This document shows positions 18,774 through 61,314 of a DNA stretch of 64,000 nucleotides, piece by piece (positions within the stretch are counted from its first letter, which is position 1; each line of letters starts with the position of its first letter). The translations under genes were made by a program, and so were the position numbers. The stretch is from an uncultured Gammaproteobacteria bacterium (GTDB taxonomy: Bacteria; Patescibacteriota; Patescibacteriia; Magasanikbacterales; GWA2-37-8). The notes below the pieces were generated by a model. The model searched no databases. It saw nothing but the letters and a program-made list of their open reading frames with translations, and was not told the DNA's origin. The stretch covers positions 678,509 to 742,508 of the forward strand of contig CAZQUL010000001.1 of NCBI GenBank assembly GCA_964596525.1. Direction: 5' to 3'.

Positions 18774-19163
18774 ATGCCGCACTTCCTAATTGTTGAAGAC
18801 GATGAATTTTTGGCCGATGCGTACCAAGCGTTTCTCAAAAAACGCCACCACACCTTTGATATCGCGCATGATGGGGCTGAGGCCTTGCGTATGATTGATA
18901 AAAGAAAACCGGAGGTGGTGATTCTTGATTTGGTGATGCCCAACGTTGACGGAGTCGCCTTCCTTAAGACGCTAAAAAAACAGAATCTTTTGGATGACAT
19001 GCCAGTGATCGTTGCATCGAATATCTCTGATAATGAGACTATGGAAGAATGTAAGAAACTGGGGGCTCGTGATTTTATTGTAAAAAGTTCTTCTTCGCTT
19101 AATGAGCTTATGGAGCGTTCTTTGGCACTTCTCGCGCCGTCGCGGACATCAAAAAGAAAATGA
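18774..19163 (+). CDS. Stand-alone CheY-like response-regulator receiver domain.
   Basis: FLIVEDDEFLADA (acidic pocket), phospho-acceptor D in VVILDLVMP, then VIVASN and the conserved K in FIVKS. Start taken at the internal ATG 18774 (MPHFLIVEDD). Confidence 0.75.
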   Translation: MPHFLIVEDDEFLADAYQAFLKKRHHTFDIAHDGAEALRMIDKRKPEVVILDLVMPNVDGVAFLKTLKKQNLLDDMPVIVASNISDNETMEECKKLGARDFIVKSSSSLNELMERSLALLAPSRTSKRK

Positions 19164-19197
19164 TCAGCTTAATTTTTTAGGCCGTCAATTATTTTTA

Positions 19198-19231
19198 ACC
19201 CGCCATGCCTACAAAGCGTGGCGGGTTTTTT
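19198..19231 (+). terminator. Terminator of the receiver gene, overlapping the 3' end of the convergent GT2 CDS.
   Basis: Hairpin AACCCGCCATGC...GCGTGGCGGGTT followed by TTTTTT on the + strand. Confidence 0.5.
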
Positions 19232-21119
19232 CCCAGCGGTAGGGTGAGCGGACAAATTGCCAGAGTGCTCGGTAACAGGCGACGCTTATGAAGAGCCAAT
19301 AAATTGGTAAGAGGGGAATATAGGGAAGCAAGTATAATTGGCGGCGTTTTACCGCAACAACGGCATGCACGATCATTTGGGAAAGATTGCCGATGATAAG
19401 GTTGAAAATGCCAATATAGCGGAAGAGGAGTGTGGGAATAGGAACTGACAGGAACGTTGAAAATGGCAAGAACGATGCGGCGAACATGCACCAGAGTAAT
19501 GGATTAAAAAGAGGAAGAAAAAAATTGGAACCCACAGTAAATAAGCCGCTTGCATATCGCTTGAGCCCGACACTCTTAATGGCTTTGATGGGGTGGGCGG
19601 CATGAACAAGGAAGGTGATGAAAAACCCTTTTTCCCAACGCGTGCGTTGTCGAATCCAGTTTCCTAGCAAGCTATTTGCCTCCTCGAGAGTGTAGGAGTT
19701 GACAAGCGCAGTGATGAGTCCGTAATCGTAGATGCGTACACCCAAATCTGCGTCTTCTGTAACATTGTACGGGTCCCAGCCGCCGATACCTTTTAGATAC
19801 TTGGTGGGGAAATGATTACTCGTTCCCCCGAGGGGGATTGCTCCGCCCACTTCTTGGCTGCCCGGAAGGTAAAAATCATACCAAAAACCGTACTCGAGCG
19901 AAAATAAACGAGTTAAAATATTGCGTTTGGTGTTGTAAAAATTGAGACGTGCCTGCACGCAGACCGTGGTGAGGGCCGATCGACGAAAAGCGGCAATCGC
20001 TTTTTTGAGTTGATCTGGGTCTGGCCGATCTTCGGCGTCGTAAATAACGATGAACGAGCCGCGGGCAAAGCTTAGCGCGTAGTTGCATGAGCGGGGTTTG
20101 GTAGACAATTCAGCTATGGGCACTTTGACATGTTCGGCCATGAGCGCTTCCGGTGTTGCGTCGTTTTCGTGTTGGCCGATGCCGTGGGCGTGGAGTGCGG
20201 CGATGGTGGTAGTGTCGTTTACTTCGGTAATGAATTTAATATCGAGTTTTTCGCGTGGATAGTTTAGCGCAAAGAGATATTTAACAAGCTGAGGCACCAT
20301 TGCCGCTTCGTTCTTGAGTGGGACGAGAATGGTGTAGATTGGGAGCTCGTCGTCGGTTATGGAGTTTATCTCTTCTTCTTTTACCTGGATAAGGTGTGTG
20401 GGTTGGAAAGAACGAGAAAATACGTAAATTTTAAAAGGATTAAGAAAAAAATAAATGACATTGAGCGTTATGAAGGTGCCTAAGACGAGGGGAAATGGCC
20501 AAAGCCATAGACCTAACGCATAGAAGGCTAAAAAGCCGAGAGGAAAAACGTAGGGTACAAGCAGTGTGCGGTAGTGGCGGCTGGAGTAATCTTGCTTGAG
20601 CACTTCGATTCGATCGGTGGCAGTGATATCCAGTTCATGGCGGTAGGCGAAGGCGAGTGCGGAGCGGAGTGTGTTGGGAGGGGCTAGCGAGAAATGAGTC
20701 AGTGGCTGGCCGAGAAAGGCACTGAAAAGATCAACAGTCTCTTGAGCGATGAAGGGGGTTGCCGCTGCGAACCACACGGCACCGTTTGATTCGTATACTA
20801 AGATCTGGTGCTCGATAGCTATCTCGGCGGGAATAAGGCTAGAGACTGCCCCGGTGGGAGTTAGGTTGAGAGGAATCTCTTTAAGCAGGGGAACATCAAG
20901 AATATGAGCGAGATTCTCGTAGAAGTTATGTTCCTTGGCGTATCCTTTGAGAATTATTTTTTCAAGCGGGTGGTCTTCATGTTTAATGATCTCTTCGATG
21001 TGCTGAAAAGCCGCTTTTTTAAAAATTCGTTCATTGAGCAGTTTTTTGTTTCGCAAGCGTGGTAAAATGTTCGTGGAGTATATCGAGCGCGCGTTCCTCA
21101 TGGGCAGATTTTTGTACAT
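19209..21119 (-). CDS. Processive family-2 glycosyltransferase (cellulose/chitin/hyaluronan-synthase-like) with an N-terminal T2SSE_N-like cytoplasmic domain.
   Basis: GT2 DxD in VIYDAEDRPDPDQ and the QxxRW motif (IRQRTRWEKGF), with multiple TM helices on both sides. The N-terminal 170 aa (LAHILDVPLLKEIPLNL...LIPAEIAIEHQILVYESNGAVWFAAATP...) resembles the GspE/MshE N-terminal domain. Confidence 0.8.
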   Translation of the reverse strand: MYKNLPMRNARSIYSTNILPRLRNKKLLNERIFKKAAFQHIEEIIKHEDHPLEKIILKGYAKEHNFYENLAHILDVPLLKEIPLNLTPTGAVSSLIPAEIAIEHQILVYESNGAVWFAAATPFIAQETVDLFSAFLGQPLTHFSLAPPNTLRSALAFAYRHELDITATDRIEVLKQDYSSRHYRTLLVPYVFPLGFLAFYALGLWLWPFPLVLGTFITLNVIYFFLNPFKIYVFSRSFQPTHLIQVKEEEINSITDDELPIYTILVPLKNEAAMVPQLVKYLFALNYPREKLDIKFITEVNDTTTIAALHAHGIGQHENDATPEALMAEHVKVPIAELSTKPRSCNYALSFARGSFIVIYDAEDRPDPDQLKKAIAAFRRSALTTVCVQARLNFYNTKRNILTRLFSLEYGFWYDFYLPGSQEVGGAIPLGGTSNHFPTKYLKGIGGWDPYNVTEDADLGVRIYDYGLITALVNSYTLEEANSLLGNWIRQRTRWEKGFFITFLVHAAHPIKAIKSVGLKRYASGLFTVGSNFFLPLFNPLLWCMFAASFLPFSTFLSVPIPTLLFRYIGIFNLIIGNLSQMIVHAVVAVKRRQLYLLPYIPLLPIYWLFISVACYRALWQFVRSPYRWEKTRHAL

Positions 21120-21200
21120 CTCGCATGAGGCGTTGTAAACGATCTTCGAGAACGAGTAACGATGATACGGTGGTGGTTGCAGTGAGGATAAGCTTGGTTT

Positions 21201-44049: not shown

Positions 44050-44745
44050 GTGACCGCGATTATCGGAAACGTGGTAGTTGATGGTAAAAACTACGGAGTA
44101 AAAGTCGTAAAAGAGGCAAAAAATCCTCATAATCTTGCCGCTAGCTGCAGCTGCCTCGAGCGCCTTAAAGAAGGCGGGCGGGAACGTGAAAAAAACACCG
44201 GTTTTCTGCCGGTCGATCCGCCGCCGGGGAGTGAACCGGGAAGTGCCGGGTACGTCTGCCTCGGTTGTCGGACCTTCTTTTGCCCAGCGGGCTGGGTGGA
44301 ACGGCTGTTTGTCCCTCTTAACACCACGATTATCGGAAATGTAGTAATCGACGGCAAGAAGTACGGAATCAGTGTTGTTGCAGAGACCAAAGAGCCTTAT
44401 TACCTGGCTGCTGTCTGCCGATGTTTTAAAGGAATCGATCAACGAGATCGACATGGGGAAAACACCGGTTTTCTGCCGGTCGATCCGCCGCCGGGGAGTG
44501 AACCGGGAAGTGCCGGGTACGTCTGCCTCGGTTGTCGGACCTTCTTTTGTCCGATCGGAATGACAGGGCAATTGTTCGCACCACTCAACGCCCAAGAGAC
44601 CCCTCCTTCGCCCCATCCGTCACCGGAGGTGATCGAAGAGATGAAGCGTCGGATGCGTGAAGACGGCATCAGCGAGCGTAGTTTCGCCGAGATGAACAAT
44701 CTGATTCATCGCCGCCGACGGCGCCATCGTCACGAGGAAGGCTGA
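44050..44745 (+). CDS. Hypothetical protein built from two tandem Cys-rich units of about 90 aa, plus a basic His/Arg tail.
   Basis: Unit 1 is NVVVDGKNYGVKVV...CSCLERL...NTGFLPVDPPPGSEPGSAGYVCLGCRTFFCP. Unit 2 is NVVIDGKKYGISVV...CRCFKGI...NTGFLPVDPPPGSEPGSAGYVCLGCRTFFCP. The C-terminus is HRRRRRHRHEEG. Confidence 0.5.
   Translation: MTAIIGNVVVDGKNYGVKVVKEAKNPHNLAASCSCLERLKEGGREREKNTGFLPVDPPPGSEPGSAGYVCLGCRTFFCPAGWVERLFVPLNTTIIGNVVIDGKKYGISVVAETKEPYYLAAVCRCFKGIDQRDRHGENTGFLPVDPPPGSEPGSAGYVCLGCRTFFCPIGMTGQLFAPLNAQETPPSPHPSPEVIEEMKRRMREDGISERSFAEMNNLIHRRRRRHRHEEG
44193..44549 (+). repeat. Two identical direct repeats of about 90 bp (44193-44282 and 44460-44549), period about 267 bp, inside the 44050..44745 ORF.
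   Basis: AAACACCGGTTTTCTGCCGGTCGATCCGCCGCCGGGGAGTGAACCGGGAAGTGCCGGGTACGTCTGCCTCGGTTGTCGGACCTTCTTTTG occurs twice. The flanking repeat-unit sequence has diverged to roughly 60% aa identity. Confidence 0.85.
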
Positions 44746-44829: not shown

Positions 44830-45849
44830 ATGGTAGTACGTCGTTTTTGGTTTTTTATTCTTGGTTTGGCGGCGTTTGTCGGGTGTGTTGTCGCTGCTTT
44901 TTGCTGGTCGGCACGCCCGGCGAGCGTTCCTCTGTATGGTTTTACCTTCAGTCCGGGATATGCTGCCTGGCTGGGTTATGATTCTGTCGTTTTATTTGAG
45001 CGCATCCTAAATGACATGCCGTTTACGTTGGTGCGCATTCCCGTACCGTGGAGCGAGGTGGAGAAAGTACGCGGATCTTTTTCGTTCGAGCAGTATGATG
45101 CCCTTTTGGCAATCGCCGAGCAGTATAACGTCCGTGTACTTCTCGCGCTCGGACAAAAAGTACCGCGCTGGCCTGAGTGCCATATTCCCGCATGGGCAGA
45201 AGATGTAGCGATGGAGGACTATCGTAGAGCTGTTATGAATTACATCGAAACCGCGGTGCGGCATTTTAAAACTGCATCGTCCGTCGAAGCGTGGCAAATC
45301 GAAAACGAAGCATACGTGCCGTTTGGCGCGTGCGACAGCTTGGTAACTAACATCATTCCTGAAGAAATCGAACGCGTGCGCACGCTCGACGGCCGCCCAA
45401 TAGTCGTGGCTGATAGCGGCGAGTTGTCGCTCTGGCACAGATCTTCGCGGCTCTCGGGCGATTATTTCGGCACGACGCTCTACCGCAGTGTTTGGAATCG
45501 CTATCTTGGGTACTTCACCTATTGGTTTATTCCACCTTTTGCATATCGTGCGCGTGCCCAATGGAATGGCATAGATGCCACTCGTCTCTGGCTCGTCGAA
45601 TTTCAGGCCGAACCCTGGCTTTCCGCCGGTGATCTGCACTCTGCAACGCTCGAGGAACAGCTTAGGACTATGAATCCAAGCATTCTTGCCAACAATCTTG
45701 CGTTTGCACACCGGGTCGGATTTTCGCGTATCTATGCCTGGGGTGTGGAGTGGTGGTACTATCTTGCAGACAACAAAGGTGACCATAGTATGATCGAAAC
45801 AGGGCAGCACCTCTTTTCTTCTCCAGTGATTCCCCAGGTAGGGGATTGA
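44830..45849 (+). CDS. Membrane-anchored protein, possibly a clan GH-A (TIM-barrel) glycoside hydrolase.
   Basis: N-terminal TM helix. WQIENEAY (NE acid/base-like) and LVEFQAEPW (candidate nucleophile Glu) are spaced as in GH5-like enzymes. Weak. Confidence 0.4.
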   Translation: MVVRRFWFFILGLAAFVGCVVAAFCWSARPASVPLYGFTFSPGYAAWLGYDSVVLFERILNDMPFTLVRIPVPWSEVEKVRGSFSFEQYDALLAIAEQYNVRVLLALGQKVPRWPECHIPAWAEDVAMEDYRRAVMNYIETAVRHFKTASSVEAWQIENEAYVPFGACDSLVTNIIPEEIERVRTLDGRPIVVADSGELSLWHRSSRLSGDYFGTTLYRSVWNRYLGYFTYWFIPPFAYRARAQWNGIDATRLWLVEFQAEPWLSAGDLHSATLEEQLRTMNPSILANNLAFAHRVGFSRIYAWGVEWWYYLADNKGDHSMIETGQHLFSSPVIPQVGD

Positions 45850-45885
45850 CGTGGTGCGCAAGGTTGAGTAGTATGTGAACACTAT

Positions 45886-45959
45886 GGACGCCTAGCTCAG
45901 TTGGTTAGAGCATCTCGTTTACACCGAGAGGGTCAGGGGTTCGAATCCCTTGGCGTCCA
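45886..45959 (+). tRNA. tRNA-Val (anticodon TAC). CCA is not encoded.
   Basis: Cloverleaf read manually: acceptor stem GGACGCC/GGCGTCC, D-arm GCTC-AGTTGGTTA-GAGC, anticodon stem TCTCG/CGAGA with loop TTTACAC, T-arm AGGGG-TTCGAAT-CCCTT, discriminator A. Confidence 0.85.
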
Positions 45960-45996
45960 CACCGTATAATCAAAGCCGGTTTTTTATTTGCGCCGG

Positions 45997-47772
45997 TTAG
46001 ACAGCTGCTGTGGAAGGCGGCTTTTGTTCTAGTTGGCTGATCTCGGTAAACCGGCCTTGTTTATCAACGAAGAACCCCATGTCTCCGCCGGAAATGTATG
46101 ATTCTGCTTCAAGCTCGAACATGAGTTTCCCTGTAAGACCACCGGCGTCCTGGATCCGTTTAAGCCATGTTTTTTCCGTTAGGGCACGGCTTCCACTCTT
46201 AGGTAAATTTTCATCGGCAAAGGTGAGGGTCGGACTGTCCTCGCCGCTTGATGTAATGATGGTGGGAAGTCCGATATCAGCACTATCGATACCGATTATT
46301 TTTTCAAGTCCCATGCGCGAATACTGACCCTTGATCGCGGATGCGATCTGGCGGCTCAGATTATGACTCTTGCAGCCGTCAATGAATACAGTCATTTGTT
46401 TTAGACTGTCTTTACCGGCCGTCACTCCCTTTTCTTGAACCTCTTTTAAAAGACGATTAACAAAAGCTAGCGCTATCCCATCGTATTTGAGCGTTGTCGG
46501 GTGTCGGATGTCGTGCGCGTCAATAACGAGTTCTTGCGGTCCGGCATGAGTGGCGATATGTATGTAGGTAGATCCACTGCTCCCTTCGATGCTTTTAAGA
46601 AGCAGATCGCCAGCATTCGTTTTGGTCTTGTCTTTGACGCGACTTGTTTCAATAAACGTAATCCGAGGATCTTTGGCATTTTCTTCTACGCCCATTGCGA
46701 CTTTAGTCATCTTCACTATTTCCTTGCCCTTGAACGTTTCCGCTGCCCCTTTTTCTGCGCCGTAGCTGAAGACGATTACGTGCTTGGTGTCTGGGCCGAG
46801 GATCTTTTTTTTACTCAGCTCCTGCCGTTCTTTAATGAGCTCGCCCAGTTTCTTTTCGGCTTCGGCAGACGTGATGTCGAGGGTCGTGCCGATGGTTGCT
46901 TTAAGCAAAGAAAATGCCCCGGCAACGGATACGTCGGCCGAAGAAAGCTTTTCGCGGATACTTGCTTTATTGAGAAGGCGATTGAATACTTTTTGCCGTT
47001 CGGGGTTGGCCCAGCCGCTCCTTGTCTGAAGATATTTTTCTCTCAATTCCTGAACCTCTCTCGGAAGCTGCACTGCTCGCTCAGGACTTAAATCCGCCAA
47101 TTGGCGCACAGACATGTCGGTTTTATTTCCCAGCCCGACTTTAAAATTTTCTTCAAGTATTGCCCGGGCATCTTCTTCATCTTCGGGCGACCATACTGAT
47201 TCGCTTTTAAGCTGCCGTAATTCTGCTTGGACGATATTTCTGCGGATTCCTTTGGGGGCGTTTTCGAGTTCTTCTTCTAACAATCCTACCTGTTTGATGC
47301 GTGGCTCGATATCTTCAGGTGCTGCGGAAAGAGGGAGGGCATCCTGTGCTTTCAGGCTCAAGCGACGGACCGGATCAGTCTCGTTCCAGCGACGATCGCG
47401 GCTTTCGTCTGCTTTGTTCGTTTCTTTCCCCAGCTGTGAACTACTTTCTTGCCGAGCCGTATCTGTTTTTTGTATGTATGCCGCGCCGCTACCGACGGCA
47501 CTTAAAAGACCGATACCGGCTAATAAGTTGCGAGCTGAATTAAAAAGTCCTTTTTTTGGAGGTCGATTTTTGGAGCGCTGCTCGACGGCGATGAATTTTT
47601 CGCTTGGTGTATCCTCGATCATTTCGAGAACTTTTTCGTCAGCTGGAAACGTGTCTGAGCGCGATAATTCATCCATGATGTCGGTAGCCGAAGTGCCAGA
47701 TTGTTCATACTGGACACGGATTTTTTCTCCGTTTTGCTTAGAACTTTCCCCACCTTTTTTTTCTTGAGACAT
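45997..47772 (-). CDS. Membrane-anchored protein with a coiled-coil region and a C-terminal caspase/CHAT-like His..Cys protease-like domain.
   Basis: One TM helix (LLAGIGLLSAVGSGAAYI) after a basic segment. A caspase-fold-like strand order KHVIVFSYGAEKG ... YIHIATHAG (His-Gly) ... MTVFIDGCKSH (Cys), as in CHAT/peptidase C14 catalytic dyads. Confidence 0.45.
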   Translation of the reverse strand: MSQEKKGGESSKQNGEKIRVQYEQSGTSATDIMDELSRSDTFPADEKVLEMIEDTPSEKFIAVEQRSKNRPPKKGLFNSARNLLAGIGLLSAVGSGAAYIQKTDTARQESSSQLGKETNKADESRDRRWNETDPVRRLSLKAQDALPLSAAPEDIEPRIKQVGLLEEELENAPKGIRRNIVQAELRQLKSESVWSPEDEEDARAILEENFKVGLGNKTDMSVRQLADLSPERAVQLPREVQELREKYLQTRSGWANPERQKVFNRLLNKASIREKLSSADVSVAGAFSLLKATIGTTLDITSAEAEKKLGELIKERQELSKKKILGPDTKHVIVFSYGAEKGAAETFKGKEIVKMTKVAMGVEENAKDPRITFIETSRVKDKTKTNAGDLLLKSIEGSSGSTYIHIATHAGPQELVIDAHDIRHPTTLKYDGIALAFVNRLLKEVQEKGVTAGKDSLKQMTVFIDGCKSHNLSRQIASAIKGQYSRMGLEKIIGIDSADIGLPTIITSSGEDSPTLTFADENLPKSGSRALTEKTWLKRIQDAGGLTGKLMFELEAESYISGGDMGFFVDKQGRFTEISQLEQKPPSTAAV

Positions 47773-47837
47773 ATTTTTTTAAGGTTGAAAAACTATTCTA
47801 CTACTATAACATATTGAGGCGAGGATAGACGTTTGGG

Positions 47838-49043
47838 TTGGTCAATATGGCAATCAAGCTGTTTTGTATGCAGTGTGTTACAATGAGTAAAGGAATATTT
47901 CATCATCAATTTTTTCGTATGAACATGCGGCGCTCGCAAATTGATATGCGCAATCCGATTTTTGAGGAACCAGCGCGGGTAAAGATTGAAAAAACGCCGG
48001 CGAGGGAAAAAAAGGAGTCATTTCCGACTACATTTGGAGCAGCGACTGAGAAGTCTGAAGAACATAAGGATAATGAAGATGCCTATACCGTTTCCACAGA
48101 TGAAATTGGTATTTATGACGGGATGGGTAATAGTTTGCGAGCTAAAGAAGCGGCTCAAACGGTCAAGAAATTTTTTGAAGAACAGTTACGTATTTTGCCT
48201 CCTCAGCCGTCCGCTGAGGCGTTGGCTGAAAAAATGGCGGCAATCACCCGCGAGGCGAGTAAAAATCTTTATGACGCTTCTTTTGATCGAAGCGGGGTAA
48301 AACAAGGGCTTGACGAACTTGGTTCAACGGTCTCTTTCATGAAAGTATGGACCGGTAAAAATCAAGAGAAAAAAGCAGTTATCGTCCATGTCGGTGACAG
48401 TCGCATCTATCGTTTGCGTGAGGGAAAAATATCCCAGCTCACCGAAGATGAATCTGTTTCCAATTGGACCATCGAGCATTCCGGTGTAAGTCCGGAAGGA
48501 CAGCGGCGAGTAAAAGAAGCTCTTGATACTTTTGAAAACGATAAAGATGTTCATCTTGTTGAAGATGAGAAAATCCTTTTTGATTTGGCGTTTAAAAAAC
48601 GCAATAGTATTCGCCAGGCTTTGGGTAAAGAATCCGTCGAGCCACGCACCTATATTTATTCTATCCAGCCGGGCGATGAATATTTCGCCATGTCTGACGG
48701 CATTAGCGATCCGCTCACGAATAAACGCATCGAACGCTCGCTTGCAGGCGACCCTGAGCGTACCATGGAACAGAAAGCGCGGGATTTGATAATGGAAGTC
48801 CATAAAGCCAACGCTGAAGGCATTAAGCGCAAGAAATTTGATGATAAAACCGTTGTCGGCATTGGATTTAGCGAAGAGCTGCCCGACTTATCGGCCGATT
48901 TGATGGAAATGGTTGATGACGAAGGCGAGTTTATCGATCCTGACGATTTGTTTGTGGTTAAGGAAGTTGTAAAAAAACCAGCTCGACCACCTCGCAAACC
49001 CACCGCTCCGCCGCCGTTGCCGCGTATGAAAAAAGCGGCCTAA
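47838..49043 (+). CDS. PP2C-family (PPM) Ser/Thr protein phosphatase with a Pro-rich C-terminal tail.
   Basis: PPM motifs YDGMGNS, HVGDSRIYRL and FAMSDGISD, and a C-terminal DDKTVVGI. The exact start is uncertain. Confidence 0.7.
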   Translation: MVNMAIKLFCMQCVTMSKGIFHHQFFRMNMRRSQIDMRNPIFEEPARVKIEKTPAREKKESFPTTFGAATEKSEEHKDNEDAYTVSTDEIGIYDGMGNSLRAKEAAQTVKKFFEEQLRILPPQPSAEALAEKMAAITREASKNLYDASFDRSGVKQGLDELGSTVSFMKVWTGKNQEKKAVIVHVGDSRIYRLREGKISQLTEDESVSNWTIEHSGVSPEGQRRVKEALDTFENDKDVHLVEDEKILFDLAFKKRNSIRQALGKESVEPRTYIYSIQPGDEYFAMSDGISDPLTNKRIERSLAGDPERTMEQKARDLIMEVHKANAEGIKRKKFDDKTVVGIGFSEELPDLSADLMEMVDDEGEFIDPDDLFVVKEVVKKPARPPRKPTAPPPLPRMKKAA

Positions 49044-49057
49044 CTTCTTGATGCTCG

Positions 49058-50188
49058 ATGAAAAAAGGTTCTCTTGCTTCGGCGTTATTTATTATTACCG
49101 GCGTCACGATCGGCGCCGGTATTTTCGGTTTGCCGCGGATGGTGGCGGTATTTGGCATTGTGCCGAGTCTTGTGGTGCTGGCTATCTTGGGGGCGGTAAT
49201 GATGTTTTTTAATACGCTTGTAGCCGAGCTTGTCAGTGCCACGCGCACGCCGCTCCAGTTGCCAGGATTGGCCGGGCGCTATGCTGGTTCGCTTTTTAAG
49301 GATATTTTGGCGCTCACTCAGGTGGGGAGTTTGTACGGGTCGCTCGTCGCCTATATTGTTGGTGCCGGTGATACTATTCAGGGTCTTGTGCCGCAGGTGC
49401 CGGTTGCGTGGATCAAATTGGTCTTTGGATGTGTTCTCGCTCTACCTGTTTGGGCAGGACTCAAGTGCGTAGTTGTCGTTGAGCGAAAAATCGGGCGTGT
49501 GCTGATCGGTTCGCTCATCGTGTGTGCCCTTATTGTCGCTACGCGAATATCACCGGATGCTCTCGTAGAGCGGCCGCCAGCGTGGGGGAGTTTGGTACAA
49601 ACGATCGCTGTGATGGTATTCGCGCTCCATGGCGCGCCTGGTATTCCGGTCGCTGAAAAGCCTGCGGGTGACCGGCGGCGGCTCAAAAAAGCGGTTATGC
49701 TCGGCACCTTGATTCCTGTTGGTGTATATGCAATTTTTTCCGCCGCCTTTGCAGGCGCGCTCGGGACGGCCACCCCAGATATTGCAACTGCCGGACTCTA
49801 CGCCCTATTTGGTGAGCCGTGGGGAACGCTCGGCCGCATTATTACCGTCTTGGCGTTCACAGGAGCGTTCGTCGGTATTGCAACGGCTCTTAAAGACCTG
49901 TGGCAATGGGATTTTGGCGTGCCAAGCCGCTATGCGTCTTCCCTCGTTCTCGTACCGCCGCTTATTGTAGCGGTAAGTGGTCGGTTACATTTTTTGGATA
50001 TTCTTGCGGCAGTGGGTGGTATCATTATTGCTTGCGAGATGATCGTTATTATTGGTACATATTGGTGTGCGGTGTATAAAAAGGCGCTGCGTTTGCATCC
50101 GCGTGCTCTGGCTGTGAGGGTCGTTGGTTCGTGTGCGGTGGTTGCTCTCGCGCTTGCAGTAGGGGTGGCGACGGTTTTAATCCTCTGA
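49058..50188 (+). CDS. Amino acid permease, possibly of the aromatic/hydroxy amino acid (HAAAP, Trp/Tyr permease) type.
   Basis: The N-terminal SALFIITGVTIGAGIFGLPRM resembles the HAAAP N-terminal motif. About 11 TM helices, 376 aa. Confidence 0.55.
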   Translation: MKKGSLASALFIITGVTIGAGIFGLPRMVAVFGIVPSLVVLAILGAVMMFFNTLVAELVSATRTPLQLPGLAGRYAGSLFKDILALTQVGSLYGSLVAYIVGAGDTIQGLVPQVPVAWIKLVFGCVLALPVWAGLKCVVVVERKIGRVLIGSLIVCALIVATRISPDALVERPPAWGSLVQTIAVMVFALHGAPGIPVAEKPAGDRRRLKKAVMLGTLIPVGVYAIFSAAFAGALGTATPDIATAGLYALFGEPWGTLGRIITVLAFTGAFVGIATALKDLWQWDFGVPSRYASSLVLVPPLIVAVSGRLHFLDILAAVGGIIIACEMIVIIGTYWCAVYKKALRLHPRALAVRVVGSCAVVALALAVGVATVLIL

Positions 50189-50277
50189 TTCACTTGACGT
50201 ACTGAACTCGCAGGGTAAGATACCAAACTCGCTCTGTATCGTGTCTACCTTGCACGCTTAACCTAAAGGGGGATGTC

Positions 50278-50829
50278 ATGAAAATCATCATCGGCTTCGG
50301 ATACAGCGATGAAAAGTATGAACACCTGCCCGGTTCCTGGGGCGTGCACGTTGTCCGCCGCGCGGCCGAGCTGGAAGAGGCGGAATTTGAGACCGTCGAA
50401 CACTATCATGCTCGCATTGCCACGTTTCCTGGTGGAATGTTCTGTATGCCGTTGCCCGGAGTTGAGCCACGGATAGCCGCGCTTAGCGTTCTTGAGAGAG
50501 AGCAGCCCAGCATTGAGCGGATGTCTCGGGAAGTGCTGGTTATTTTTCAAAGCACCGAGTATCCGACTGGCGTGGTGAATCTTGCTACAAAAATCCAGCC
50601 TTTTACTACAGTGCCTAACCCGGACGTAAAAAGTTTGGCCGAACAGGTCTGTCGTGGTTGCTCAAAACCGGGCCTTTTTGCTCGGCTGAGTATCAGCTTT
50701 GGTCAATCTTCGCCGTTTCTTCCGGTTCGTATCGGTTCGCGTTCGGTGTACGAGCGGACCTTTATGGATTCTGTACAGCGCGGAACTGTCTTGACTCGTT
50801 ACTGGTTGGCTGGTAAGGCCGGTGTATAG
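50278..50829 (+). CDS. Hypothetical protein.
   Basis: 183-aa ORF, GC-rich, with no motif recognised. A strong terminator follows. Confidence 0.4.
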   Translation: MKIIIGFGYSDEKYEHLPGSWGVHVVRRAAELEEAEFETVEHYHARIATFPGGMFCMPLPGVEPRIAALSVLEREQPSIERMSREVLVIFQSTEYPTGVVNLATKIQPFTTVPNPDVKSLAEQVCRGCSKPGLFARLSISFGQSSPFLPVRIGSRSVYERTFMDSVQRGTVLTRYWLAGKAGV

Positions 50830-50860
50830 CGTTCATAACGAACTATGCAGCAAAGGGGGA

Positions 50861-50888
50861 ACACGGACCTCCCTCCGTGTTTTTTTAA
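50861..50888 (+). terminator. Rho-independent terminator.
   Basis: ACACGGA-CCTCCC-TCCGTGT followed by TTTTTTT. Confidence 0.75.
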
Positions 50889-57540: not shown

Positions 57541-57630
57541 TGCCTGGCTTTTGTGAGAAAGGTGGTTGAGAAATCGATTGCCTTTCAAAAAGGCTGCCTA
57601 CGGGCAACCTCAATACTATTTATCTTATTT

Positions 57631-60600
57631 ATGAACAAAACCTTTAAACGTGTAGTGACGAGTGTGGTGGCTTTTGCCATGGCTTTCTCGGTCGCTCCCG
57701 TTGCGTCGCTTGCTGCGATTGATCCGTCCTGCCCGACGCTTAACGCTGGTGACGAAGTGAAAGTCGTTGGTCGTTCGGCCATTTACATCGTTGATTACGA
57801 TGGAAAGATCCGCCCGTTCACGAGCGGTGACATCTACAAGACCTACAAGGCCGCTTATGGCAACTACAAGCTTATTGGCGGTGCTTGTCTCAATTCCTTA
57901 CCGCAACCGAGTCAGTTCCCGTCAATCGTTACCTACCGCCCAGGTGCTGTCGTCGTTCGCTACAGCGCTGACCCGACCGGCCAGCTCTACGTAGTACAAC
58001 CCGGCAACGCTTTGGCCAAGATCTCGCTTGAGAACGCTCGCGTTCTCCACGGAGCCAACTTCCGCGTCCGCGACATCTCCCTCATCGACTGGCCGCACTA
58101 CGTAAATCGCCGCGCCGATGTCACTGGTCCTAAAGTGTACCCCGGCATGACGATCCGCACCCCTTCGACGGGTAGCAAAGTGTGGTACGTCTCCACCATG
58201 AACAAACTCCATGAAGTTTCTCCGTCGGCTTTGGCGGCTAACTTCATTCTCCCTGAATACATCTTCACCGTTCCGGATTCTGCTGTAGCGGGTATGGCCA
58301 TGGGTGATGCCATCACTGGTATCAACCCGATGCTCATGGACCGCACTCAGAGCGGCTTCGCTGCTGATGGTACGTGGGTAGGTGTTGGTGCTAACCCCAC
58401 CACTCCGACTGGTCCGGTTTCCGGTTCCCAGTTGAGCGTCTCGCTCGCCTCGAACAACCCGACGAACTCGACCAACATCCCGGTCGGTACTTCGGCTCTT
58501 GCTCGTACTCTTGATCTCTCCTTCTCGGCTGGTAACGCTGATGTGACCGTCACTGGTCTTAACCTCATGCGCACTGGTCTTTCGGTTGATCAGGACATCA
58601 ACAATGTTTACCTCATGGACGGCAACACCATCATCGCTTCCAACCTTGGAATCTCGAATGGTGTCGTCAACTTCAGCAACCCGAGCGCTGCTGGTCTCTT
58701 CAAGGTTCCTGCTAACGGTTCCAAGAAAATCACCGTTGGCGTGACCATGAACTCGTCTGCTGCTGGTCGCACGATCGGCTTCAGCCTCCAGAACGCTTCG
58801 GCTGTCATGAGCAACGCTTCGGCTGTTTCTGGCTCCTTCCCGATGATGAGCGCTACCTACACTGGTACCTCGCTCACCAACTCCGGTGGCGTCCAGATCA
58901 CCAACTCCTCGGCTGGTCCTTCCAGCCCGGGTATCAGCGTCAACGCTGGCCAGAAGAACTTCACGGTCGGTCAGTTCTCCCTCTTGGGTCAGAACCAGAC
59001 TGTCCAGGTTCGCTCGCTCAAGTTCACCTTGATCGGCTCGGCCAACGCTTCTGATGTTACCAACTTCTCCTTGTGGAATGGTGGTACTCAGATCGGCCAG
59101 ACCGTCGGTGTTGCTAACGGCAATGAAGTGGTCTTCGACCTCTCCACGCTTCCGTTGCAGCTCAACGCTGGTCAGAACGTTGTTCTCACTGTTCGCGCTG
59201 ACATCATGGGTGGCGTAAACCGCTACTTCCAGATGTCGGTACAGCGCAACTACGATGTTGTCGCTCACGACATGCAGTTCAACATGGGTGTGCTCCCGAC
59301 TCTCAACACCGGCAGCTTCCCGATGAACTTGTCCTACGTCAACATCAACGCTGGCAGCTTGACGGTTACTCGCTCGACGAGCTCTCCGTCCACCTACCTC
59401 TTGCCGGGCGGCACCAACCAGACGGTTGCTACGTTCGACATGACTGCTAACGGCGAAGCCGTTCGCTTGACCGCTGCCAACATCGGTCTTACCCTTGGCG
59501 GTACCCTCAACCTTTCTCATCTCTCCAACCTCAAGTTGGTTGATGACCAGGGTCAGCAGATCGGTACCACCCAGTCGACCATCTCGAACACCTCGACGGC
59601 TGCTTCGTACAGCAACCTCAACTACATCATCCCGGCCAACACGACCCGCAAGGTCTCCGTGGTCGTTGATGTATCGAGCTCGGCTGCTGGCACCTTCCAG
59701 GCTACCCTCTCGGGTATGACTGGTCAGGGCTTCACCTCGCTCGCCAACCTCACCATTTCTCAGCAGGCTGGTAACTTGCTTACCGCCAACTCCACGATCT
59801 TGACCGTTGCTGCCAATGGCACTCCGGCCAACCTCGTAACTGGTCAGCCGAATGCTAAGATCGGTTCCTTCACCCTCACGGCTGGTGCTGCTTCGGACGT
59901 TTCCGTCTCGAACATCACCTTGAAGGTCCTTTCCACCAACAGCCCGGCCACCGTCTTCCAGAACTTGAAGATGATGATCGGCAACACGCAGATCGGCACC
60001 ACTCAGTCGACCCTTACCAACGGTACTTCGTACAACTTCAGCCTCTCGCAGCCGGTTACCATCACTAAAGGTGGTCAGCTCGTTGTCGATGTTTACGCTG
60101 ATGTCTTGACGAACAACACCTCGTTCTCCGCTACTGCTCCGGTTGCTATCGCTTCTGGTGGTATCTCCGCCATCGCGACCGCTACCAACCAGTCGGTCAC
60201 GAGCGTTCCTGGTTCGGATGTCAACTCGCTCACCGCCACTGTTACCTCGGCTGGCTCTCTCAGCTACTCGCCGATCAACATGCCGGTTGGCGCTCACGTA
60301 GCCATGGGCCTCACCAACGTCAAGTTGGGCACCTATCAGCTCTCGGCTAGCACCAACGAAGACATCAAGGTTACCGATCTTACCTTGCGTGTCACTTCGA
60401 CCAACTCCAACTCGGTACTTGCTCCGCAGTCGTTCGTTAACTACCGCTTGGTAGCTAACGGCATCACCTACGGTCAGGCTACCAACATCAACGCGAGCGC
60501 TTCCGCTTCGCCGTTCGAATTGGTTTGGTCTGGTCTTAACAACGCTGGCAACTTCCTCATCGTACCGAAAGGCGGTACTGTGAACGTCGATGTCATTGCG

Positions 60601-61314
60601 GATGTTAACACCTGGGATAACCTCCAGTCCGTCTCTGGTCTCCACACCGATCTCTACAACGCCGCTACCGCGGTCCGCGTAGCGACCGTTACGTACCAGG
60701 GCGCTGCTTCCTCGGTGGTTGGTAACGCTACCTCCACTGCTGGTGGCAACACGTTCAACGTCTTCCGCTCCACGCTCAGCGCGGCTGCGGCTAGCTCCAT
60801 CCCTGGCGGCTACTCGACGAACGTGCTCTCGAGCGAAGTCAAGACCAGCGGTTACACCTTTACCGCTGCTGCTCAGGGTGACGCGACTCTCCGCCGCATC
60901 TCCTTCAGCTACTTCTTCACGGGTGTCGTTTCCACGAGCCCGACTGCTACCTACACGATCTACATGACCAACCCGTCGTCGCCTGGTTCCGTTGGCGACC
61001 TCGTAGCTACGGGTACCATCAGTCTTGCTAGCTCGTTCTCGGGTACTGTCACCAACCTCGGCCTTGCTCTTCCGGGCAGCGCCTCGGGTAGCGGTGTGAA
61101 GATCGCTGGTGGTGCTTCGGGTGCTCGCACCTTGATCATTGCCTTCACCGGTACTGCGTTTGAATCCAAACCGAACGTCACCGGTAAGTCTGCTGGTACG
61201 CAGCTCGTCAACTGGGGCTGGGATGACCTCACTCGTGGTGTCACCACTCCGGTCGATGCTGATCCGCAGCTTGTGATCTCGCCGATCAACGGTAACACTG
61301 TTTCCTCGAACTAA
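57631..61314 (+). CDS. Giant S-layer-like cell-surface protein (about 1230 aa) with an N-terminal globular domain and long Thr/Ser/Asn/Gly-rich Ig-like repeats.
   Basis: Signal peptide (MNKTFKRVVTSVVAFAMAFSVAPVASLAA). The N-terminal domain of about 200 aa has two Cys. The remainder is low-complexity β-rich repeats (…TVGVTMNSSAAG…, …VVLTVRADIMGG…). A strong terminator lies at 61447-61483. Confidence 0.65.
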   Translation: MNKTFKRVVTSVVAFAMAFSVAPVASLAAIDPSCPTLNAGDEVKVVGRSAIYIVDYDGKIRPFTSGDIYKTYKAAYGNYKLIGGACLNSLPQPSQFPSIVTYRPGAVVVRYSADPTGQLYVVQPGNALAKISLENARVLHGANFRVRDISLIDWPHYVNRRADVTGPKVYPGMTIRTPSTGSKVWYVSTMNKLHEVSPSALAANFILPEYIFTVPDSAVAGMAMGDAITGINPMLMDRTQSGFAADGTWVGVGANPTTPTGPVSGSQLSVSLASNNPTNSTNIPVGTSALARTLDLSFSAGNADVTVTGLNLMRTGLSVDQDINNVYLMDGNTIIASNLGISNGVVNFSNPSAAGLFKVPANGSKKITVGVTMNSSAAGRTIGFSLQNASAVMSNASAVSGSFPMMSATYTGTSLTNSGGVQITNSSAGPSSPGISVNAGQKNFTVGQFSLLGQNQTVQVRSLKFTLIGSANASDVTNFSLWNGGTQIGQTVGVANGNEVVFDLSTLPLQLNAGQNVVLTVRADIMGGVNRYFQMSVQRNYDVVAHDMQFNMGVLPTLNTGSFPMNLSYVNINAGSLTVTRSTSSPSTYLLPGGTNQTVATFDMTANGEAVRLTAANIGLTLGGTLNLSHLSNLKLVDDQGQQIGTTQSTISNTSTAASYSNLNYIIPANTTRKVSVVVDVSSSAAGTFQATLSGMTGQGFTSLANLTISQQAGNLLTANSTILTVAANGTPANLVTGQPNAKIGSFTLTAGAASDVSVSNITLKVLSTNSPATVFQNLKMMIGNTQIGTTQSTLTNGTSYNFSLSQPVTITKGGQLVVDVYADVLTNNTSFSATAPVAIASGGISAIATATNQSVTSVPGSDVNSLTATVTSAGSLSYSPINMPVGAHVAMGLTNVKLGTYQLSASTNEDIKVTDLTLRVTSTNSNSVLAPQSFVNYRLVANGITYGQATNINASASASPFELVWSGLNNAGNFLIVPKGGTVNVDVIADVNTWDNLQSVSGLHTDLYNAATAVRVATVTYQGAASSVVGNATSTAGGNTFNVFRSTLSAAAASSIPGGYSTNVLSSEVKTSGYTFTAAAQGDATLRRISFSYFFTGVVSTSPTATYTIYMTNPSSPGSVGDLVATGTISLASSFSGTVTNLGLALPGSASGSGVKIAGGASGARTLIIAFTGTAFESKPNVTGKSAGTQLVNWGWDDLTRGVTTPVDADPQLVISPINGNTVSSN

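Follow-up and report, generated by a model that had tools for sequence, protein, structure and literature searches.

The stretch of DNA analysed here (the window, 64,000 nucleotides) contains a tRNA-Val gene followed by a minus-strand gene for a 591-residue protein, a PP2C-type phosphatase, an amino-acid permease and a short orphan reading frame. The features to which the text refers are as follows.

45846-45874: promoter-like site upstream of tRNA-Val
45886..45960, plus strand: tRNA-Val(TAC) (ARAGORN; Rfam RF00005, 69.7 bits)
45997..47772, minus strand: gene of the 591-residue protein, a putative signal-anchored, C13-like (legumain/GPI8-like) clan CD cysteine peptidase
46033..46794, minus strand: predicted catalytic domain of caspase-hemoglobinase fold, residues 327-580 (AF2 model, hhalign)
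46372-46374, minus strand: codon of Cys467 (codon checked)
46546-46548, minus strand: codon of His409 (codon checked)
46795..47427, minus strand: conserved N-terminal helical domain, residues 116-326 (AF2, alignment)
47299-47310, minus strand: near-invariant I-[DE]-P-R motif, residues 155-158
47473..47529, minus strand: signal anchor or weak transmembrane (TM) segment, residues 82-100, NLLAGIGLLSAVGSGAAYI, with KNRPPKK just before it
47925..49043, plus strand: PP2C/PPM Ser/Thr phosphatase, 372 residues (PF13672), with an in-frame ATG also at 47919
49058..50188, plus strand: amino-acid transporter of the Trp/Tyr permease family (PF03222, 8.4e-24)
50278..50829, plus strand: orphan ORF of 183 residues with no Pfam, NCBIfam or PADLOC match
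About 50855-50886, plus strand: terminator-like 13-bp hairpin with a T-run, read from the sequence, after the 183-residue ORF

Conserved backbone around tRNA-Val

The tRNA, the 591-residue reading frame, the permease behind the PP2C and the hypothetical ORF after it are all present as the earlier note had described them. The PP2C exceeds the gathering score of PF13672 (E 4.4e-9; 36.6 bits, cut-off 24), carries the metal-binding acidic motifs DGMG, GDSR, SDG and DDKT (pattern DDxT), and matches the NCBIfam Stp1/IreP-type model at 8e-23, under that model's cut-off. The gene caller returns a protein of 372 residues, the ATGAACATG start context is common to the L009 orthologue, and the start most likely lies at ATG 47919/47925, TTG 47838 not being favoured. 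The divergent orientation of phosphatase and peptidase thus stands, but the spacer between them measures about 146-152 bp rather than the 65 bp originally given. The permease starts 14 bp downstream of the PP2C, and the two probably form an operon.

Synteny was compared with relatives from the Magasanikbacteria group, which are distant (44-84% amino-acid identity). The PP2C-permease pair forms a syntenic backbone in three of them (L009, L012 and L013), where the PP2C orthologues are 47-50% identical and have the permease next to them; the permease is syntenic in L014 and L024 as well. L009 shows the order GH, PP2C, permease, beta-propeller, without tRNA and without peptidase, and L014 and L024 read GH, tRNA-Val, short ORF, permease. 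In the latter two, tRNA-Val again follows the GH gene; a conserved promoter-like TTGAC box precedes it, and a hairpin and T-run come after it. The order GH, tRNA-Val, PP2C, permease, beta-propeller is a conserved backbone in which tRNA-Val, behind the GH gene, marks no island border; of the proposed block, nothing but the peptidase gene, of about 1.9 kb, and the 183-residue ORF is missing from the relatives. The peptidase gene is thereby the one sizeable lineage-specific gene of the locus.

These observations bear on the proposal that the interval 45886-50888 is an island next to tRNA-Val. On that reading, a tRNA-Val-integrated element of 45.9-50.9 kb would carry a caspase/CHAT-like cell-fate or defence effector working with the divergent PP2C. 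The tRNA adjacency and the divergent arrangement are real, the fold is caspase-like (see below), the stretch 3' of tRNA-Val varies between genomes, and the peptidase gene is missing at the same position in L009, L014 and L024. However, PP2C, permease and tRNA belong to the backbone; the 31-nt 3' end of the tRNA occurs once in the window at up to three mismatches, and a repeat search gave no att-like pair. Pfam scans of the ORFs between 45.9 and 52.9 kb, and of further window ORFs, detected no integrase or recombinase. An island integrated at the tRNA is not supported.

The coupling of protease and phosphatase in a signalling or defence module fares no better. No PP2C was found in the flanks, and no adjacent tRNA, at any of 16 other family-member loci, which represent about eight synteny types. 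SAVED, TPR, CRISPR or other defence partners are absent near the peptidase both in the window and at these 16 loci; PADLOC returned a weak generic PP2C match and no defence model, and the Pfam scans of window ORFs showed no kinase, as the earlier note had said of Ser/Thr kinases. Hydropathy analysis gave no hydrophobic segment in the PP2C; with export predicted for the peptidase domain, the two proteins would occupy different compartments. The PP2C is cytoplasmic, without a functional tie to the peptidase, and a module of the two is not supported; the peptidase lies beside it by chance. We regard the combined picture of island and effector as extremely unlikely.

The second variable element, the 183-residue ORF, matched only its own contig by tblastn among the fetched loci and is missing between permease and beta-propeller gene in L009. 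Its region has no DNA or protein similarity to the variable ORF that lies 3' of tRNA-Val in L014 and L024, and we class it as lineage-specific filler whose coding status is uncertain. The hairpin behind it had been called a strong terminator: the 13-bp stem and T-run exist (folding energy -14.1 kcal/mol, z -1.35), but the consensus terminator scan does not list the site. A tandem repeat at 44.05-44.6 kb was rejected as a known or strongly structured RNA, with no Rfam match and fold z-scores of -0.4 to -0.5.

Fold and family of the 591-residue protein

The protein contains, in order, the blocks KHVIVFSYG, YIHIATHAG and MTVFIDGCKSH, from which a caspase fold had first been suggested. An exhaustive phmmer search yielded 66 representatives sharing the region of residues 240-590. 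The catalytic-position His409 is retained in 63 of 64 and Cys467 in all 64 family sequences, each preceded by a hydrophobic block (YIHIATH409 and MTVFIDGC467); the residue after the histidine changes from Gly to Ala or Ser in the subclade of the window protein (THAG).

In the AF2 model, the catalytic domain is predicted with confidence. Its six main strands and five larger helices correspond to the central sheet of six strands and the five major helices expected of clan CD. Modelled strand 402-407 ends at the histidine and strand 460-465 at the cysteine. Clan CD enzymes carry these two residues at the ends of consecutive core strands (PMC4357240), and the agreement of the model with this description supports the fold. 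Foldseek ranks PIGK and asparaginyl endopeptidase at the top, C13 enzymes being the nearest structural neighbours, with C14 scores level with or just below them. By hhalign, using a legumain sequence confirmed against 4fgu, the family THG falls on legumain TDH148G and DxC on IEAC189, although the match is weak (E 0.006, with a hhalign probability of 6%). The model and alignment thus support a caspase-hemoglobinase (clan CD) fold for the C-terminal block, with His and Cys at the catalytic positions.

Family assignment was pursued by profile searches. The 591-residue protein itself has no Pfam match at E <= 1 and does not reach the curated threshold of PF01650, but 14 of 42 family members give weak Peptidase_C13 matches (best E 1.8e-5). 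One member weakly matches Peptidase_C25, none of the 42 matches Peptidase_C14, and PF12770 (CHAT) matches neither the protein nor its relatives in Pfam or PADLOC. On the modelled structure, the nearest family is C13 (legumain/GPI8) rather than CHAT or C14; of the original CHAT/C14 assignment, the caspase-like fold holds and the family does not. NCBIfam and PADLOC returned nothing for the peptidase, an NCBIfam XopAJ match being spurious (15.9 bits, where the cut-off is 300). Neither the protein nor two family profiles retrieved anything relevant from PDB sequences, and no PDB legumain was retrieved via the family profile. A word-indexed homologue search found only the protein itself, whether queried with the protein or with the family alignment; a scan of genome contigs with the protein gave no match, and the subclade alignment recovered four loci from metagenomes.

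In the searches made here, the family occurs only in bacteria of the candidate phyla radiation (CPR), and its members are labelled in databases as 'hypothetical' or 'twin-arginine translocation signal domain-containing protein'. Literature searches turned up no relevant work on legumain, C13 or clan CD enzymes in CPR, Patescibacteria or Magasanikbacteria. We conclude that this is a new, hitherto unannotated legumain-like family of the Magasanikbacteria group of the CPR.

The likeness to C13 (PF01650: legumain, plant asparaginyl endopeptidases and ligases, GPI8/PIGK) lies in the fold and in the positions of His and Cys. Unlike legumain, the protein has no C-terminal activation peptide and LSAM prodomain but stops some 10 residues past the catalytic domain; its accessory domain is instead N-terminal, helical and marked by the IDPR motif. 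Of the Asn/Asp-specific S1 pocket of legumain (Arg44, His45, Ser216 and Asp231), Arg44 and His45 are not evidently conserved in the family; alignments A1-A3 show no obvious counterpart of the two behind strand 1. The family further differs from C13 in its use of twin-arginine export or a signal anchor and in having been found only in CPR bacteria. In contrast to the C14 caspases, metacaspases and paracaspases, it gives no sign of an intersubunit-linker architecture and is predicted to be exported rather than cytoplasmic. With CHAT proteins (SAVED-CHAT, TPR-CHAT/Csx29) it has in common the clan CD fold and a helical region ahead of the protease domain, and C11 clostripain-like enzymes and C25 gingipains, also His/Cys enzymes of clan CD, are likewise bacterial, secreted and equipped with pro-regions.

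N-terminal regions and predicted export

The single TM helix of the earlier description corresponds to a segment that is present but only moderately hydrophobic, its highest Kyte-Doolittle window reaching 1.45 at residues 82-83. It sits where other members carry a twin-arginine signal: an RRxFL motif occurs in 42 of the 66 family members (about two thirds), and 12 of 42 match Pfam TAT_signal. The window protein has KNRPPKK and a hydrophobic stretch without the RR pair. Because its anchor is moderately hydrophobic and the RR motif is absent, its export is inferred from its relatives; the twin-arginine signals of the family, together with this signal anchor, indicate that the peptidase domain probably lies outside the cytoplasm.

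Between anchor and catalytic domain, the helices at residues 120-170 and 240-320 are modelled at pLDDT 90-95. Conservation there is high among non-gap sequences, with D/E156 in 63/63, P157 in 58/63, R158 in 58/63 and W254 of the GWAN motif in 60/63. The helical domain is a possible pro- or regulatory domain.

Candidate activity and its meaning

The account that we consider likely is that of an exported legumain-like peptidase with a signal anchor and a conserved dyad, which entered or left this locus as a single gene and not as part of an island or module. As predicted from sequence and model, a disordered cytoplasmic N-terminus (residues 1-80) would be followed by the weak TM segment or signal anchor at residues 82-100, placing the protein in a type-II orientation that leaves its catalytic domain extracytoplasmic. 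The conserved helical domain with the I-[DE]-P-R motif would connect this anchor to the caspase fold, and the legumain/GPI8-like domain with its putative His409-Cys467 dyad would form the C-terminus; most family members would reach the same side by the twin-arginine pathway. Such a protein may be an active endopeptidase, or perhaps a transpeptidase, and cut proteins or peptides outside the cell or on its surface, with surface-protein maturation or turnover and nutrient scavenging as candidate roles. Its place near tRNA-Val and PP2C would reflect gain of one gene, or its loss in relatives, within a conserved backbone.

A catalytically dead, caspase-like scaffold for protein-protein interaction at the surface, comparable to the caspase-like domain of Raptor, is an alternative reading. 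Across the 66 representatives, which otherwise share 20-40% identity, His and Cys hardly ever change, the pattern expected from purifying selection on catalysis, and we judge a scaffold very improbable.

Several homologues adjoin a class A PBP, Peptidase_S11, VanY, alanine racemase or Wzy_C, and Pfam scans show the window neighbourhood to be rich in envelope and surface genes; other homologues lie among ribosomal, chaperonin or copper-ATPase genes. Given this heterogeneity, a link to the envelope is no more than hinted at, and the family loci yielded no common gene for a partner or substrate. An enzyme acting mainly as a transpeptidase or ligase, like GPI8 and the plant peptide asparaginyl ligases, might attach or cross-link surface proteins or wall peptides in the CPR envelope, a sortase-like function on a C13 scaffold. 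Fold similarity, however, does not separate hydrolase from ligase; the ribosomal, chaperonin and copper-ATPase neighbourhoods and the missing common partner or substrate gene speak against it, and no clan CD enzyme is known to act on peptidoglycan. We rate this possibility as unlikely. A bolder version, which we hold to be likewise unlikely, would see in the family what GPI transamidase and plant peptide ligases are elsewhere, in a Tat-exported form peculiar to the CPR: a C13-scaffold transpeptidase maturing or anchoring surface proteins or wall-linked peptides of these episymbiotic bacteria, with the IDPR motif of the helical domain as an autoinhibitory or processing site.

The exported peptidase thus remains our preferred reading. 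It removes a false lead, the locus harbouring neither a caspase-PP2C cell-fate or defence module nor a tRNA island, and it suggests both fold and likely chemistry for proteins of Magasanikbacteria-type CPR genomes so far known as 'hypothetical' or Tat-signal proteins. These organisms depend on surface and secreted enzymes for their life on hosts; surface-protein processing or nutrient release would be a candidate task for an exported enzyme of the legumain/GPI8 type.

Composition and synteny of the tRNA-Val locus

The features ascribed to the locus are all present:

45886–45960: tRNA-Val(TAC), ARAGORN and Rfam concordant
45997..47772, minus strand: ORF of the 591-aa protein
Probable start ATG 47919/47925, plus strand: PPM/PP2C phosphatase (PF13672, E 4.4e-9, above the gathering score)
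3' of PP2C: Trp/Tyr-permease-family transporter (PF03222, 8.4e-24)
50278–50829, plus strand: 183-aa ORF, next after the permease
~50855–50886: hairpin with T-run, 3' of the 183-aa ORF

The PP2C gene call (372 aa) contains the DGMG, GDSR, SDG and DDKT motifs. Its start is most likely ATG 47919/47925, where the ATGAACATG context is common to the window and the orthologue on L009, a 569-kb metagenomic contig; the gene is divergent from the 591-aa gene as the earlier note described, and with this start the spacer is ~150 bp rather than ~65 bp.

L009 carries the closest PP2C orthologue (47–50% identical) in the order pyruvate kinase–SHMT–radical SAM–methyltransferase–GH–PP2C–permease–beta-propeller and, thereafter, 583 aa–HTH–sigma–DUF5667–1261 aa, where GH is the gene that lies upstream of tRNA-Val in the window. 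The window backbone follows this gene order at 44–84% amino-acid identity; tRNA-Val, the 591-aa gene and, at its syntenic position, the 183-aa ORF are absent from L009. PP2C is followed by the permease on two further contigs, L012 and L013, both short. A genome scan anchored on the radical-SAM gene placed a 'Candidatus Magasanikiibacteriota' MAG (75% identity) as the nearest named genome, and in two relatives' loci, L014 and L024, tRNA-Val(TAC) directly follows GH with a conserved promoter-like box and terminator, succeeded first by a diverged ORF of 196/227 aa and then by the permease. Given this synteny, GH–tRNA-Val and PP2C–permease are both backbone, and the genome-specific parts are only the peptidase gene (~1.9 kb) and the orphan 183-aa ORF, for which neither the libraries nor the fetched loci yielded a homologue and whose coding status is uncertain.

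The PP2C–permease pair, with a 10–14 bp gap, is conserved in four related candidate phyla radiation (CPR) genomes (window 47925–50188; L009 10001–12322; L012 445–2725; L013 981–2875) with no kinase found near it, and such a phosphatase–transporter operon is unusual. Despite a precomputed Pfam label of PF00491 (Arginase) with no PP2C listed, the 420-aa L013 orthologue (P0074, 981–2243) and the window PP2C are 49% identical; the label may stem from a fusion at the N-terminus or from a quirk of annotation. In L014 (1257–2144) and L024 (1302–2217), the place of PP2C between tRNA-Val and permease is taken by the GC-rich 196/227-aa ORF; the two proteins are recognisably similar by eye, their DNA aligns at the ends only, and neither resembles the 183-aa ORF. 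The position 3' of tRNA-Val seems to be fast-evolving. Records titled 'uncultured Gammaproteobacteria bacterium' (L014, L015, L017, L024) have radical-SAM proteins 55–67% identical to the window's, L014, L017 and L024 additionally share parts of its CPR-type synteny, and all four are probably mislabelled Patescibacteria.

Compared with the compact backbone of L009 1–10000, the window holds large lineage-specific envelope/surface-gene blocks at ~16.7–33 kb and 36.5–44.8 kb (BcsB-like, GT2, GT4, FG-GAP and two fn3 proteins); the region is a patchwork in which the peptidase gene is just one of several indels. A tandem direct repeat (44050–44600, period ~267–270 nt) between an fn3 surface-protein gene and GH has a 94-nt core (44192–44285 and 44459–44552, 99% identical; flanks ~70%), no Rfam match and unremarkable folding z-scores; it is unexplained, the candidates being a small RNA, a duplicated small gene or a mobile element. 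A 1253-aa protein without Pfam domain (57553–61314) and its L009 counterpart (19004–21182) agree at 72% of positions across the first 720 residues of the window protein, which is far more conserved than its neighbours.

Fold and sequence family of the 591-aa protein

Alone, the 591-aa protein matched nothing in Pfam, NCBIfam, PADLOC or PDB sequences, and a word-indexed homologue search returned only itself. Exhaustive search of 1.84 billion representative proteins yielded a family of 66 (32 with E <= 1e-10) sharing aa 240–590. His409 is kept in 63/64 sequences (strand-(T)HG) and Cys467 in all 64 (strand-(D/E)xC), with an I-[DE]-P-R motif (aa 155–158) and a GWAN motif upstream of the dyad. Peptidase_C13 was matched weakly by 14/42 members and TAT_signal by 12/42; by sequence, the 591-aa protein lies outside every curated model.

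An AlphaFold2 model built from a 42-sequence alignment (pLDDT 77.6, pTM 0.75; confident at aa 120–170 and 240–580) places His409 and Cys467 each at the C-terminal end of a core strand, the two strands (402–407 and 460–465) being consecutive, which is the clan CD arrangement (PMC4357240). Structural comparison scored the OaAEP1 asparaginyl ligase proenzyme (15.7), human legumain (15.6), the GPI transamidase PIGK (14.6), metacaspases (14.6, 14.1), caspases (about 12), SAVED-CHAT (11.9), gingipains (10.4, 9.9) and clostripains (8.8, 8.7); PIGK and an asparaginyl endopeptidase held the top Foldseek ranks. Profile–sequence comparison of the family's catalytic domain with human legumain (PDB 4fgu except for its engineered N-to-Q change) gave one weak local alignment (E 0.006), with IYFNTHG opposite IYFTDH148G and IIDxC opposite YIEAC189, in agreement with the structural result. 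Because strand-end dyad, structural neighbours and legumain alignment concur, the caspase fold proposed earlier is supported, with C13, not CHAT or C14, as the nearest family, by a small margin over metacaspases. The fold is thus clan CD/C13-like, with an essentially invariant His/Cys dyad.

Genomic context, export and proposed role

The earlier note had read 45886–50888 as a putative tRNA-Val island with a caspase–PP2C pair reminiscent of signalling or defence modules. No repeat of the tRNA-Val 3' end, and hence no att site of that kind, was found; the window ORFs scanned against Pfam include no integrase and, as that note had stated, no kinase; and defence models gave no match. Among 16 other loci with a family member (~8 distinct synteny types), none has PP2C in the fetched flanks or an adjacent tRNA. 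The gene is flanked by class A PBP and S11 carboxypeptidase in one setting; elsewhere it lies downstream of a VanY-like gene or of flippase and Wzy_C, or adjoins alanine racemase, SecE/NusG, TrmD/GroEL, or a copper ATPase and large fn3 surface protein. The family loci share no conserved partner gene. With PP2C, permease and tRNA-Val in the backbone, neither the island nor the module is supported; variability is confined to the peptidase gene and 183-aa ORF, and is tRNA-associated only in that the stretch downstream of tRNA-Val differs between genomes.

Predicted export signals occur across the family: in 42/66 members a hydrophobic stretch comes after a twin-arginine motif (RRxFL), and one member bears the name 'twin-arginine translocation signal domain-containing protein [Candidatus Magasanikbacteria]'. 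At this position the window's subclade (P0001–P0007) has a Lys/Arg-rich stretch and hydrophobic segment, preceded by a variable, disordered N-terminal extension; the proposed TM helix corresponds to aa 82–100, of only moderate hydrophobicity. We infer an N-in/C-out topology that would place the peptidase domain outside the cytoplasm. PP2C, in which no hydrophobic segment was detected, is presumably cytoplasmic.

The 591-aa protein would then be a catalytically active cysteine endopeptidase, tethered to the membrane with its peptidase domain outside the cytoplasm, and its substrates would be extracellular or surface proteins or peptides. It could instead be a transpeptidase, since a ligase and a transamidase are among its best structural neighbours. 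By analogy with the pro-regions of other clan CD enzymes (PMC4357240), the helical domain at the N-terminus, which bears the invariant IDPR motif, may have a pro/regulatory function in the putative endopeptidase. In several relatives the gene has envelope genes as neighbours, and the window is rich in surface genes; both hint at a role in the envelope, only a hint because the relatives' neighbourhoods are heterogeneous. We found no literature on C13-like or clan CD enzymes in CPR bacteria. The proteins, so far without annotation, vary a well-known fold and chemistry at the level of a family and do not make up a new kind of system; they are marked by a new accessory domain, predicted twin-arginine export and a restricted phylogenetic range.
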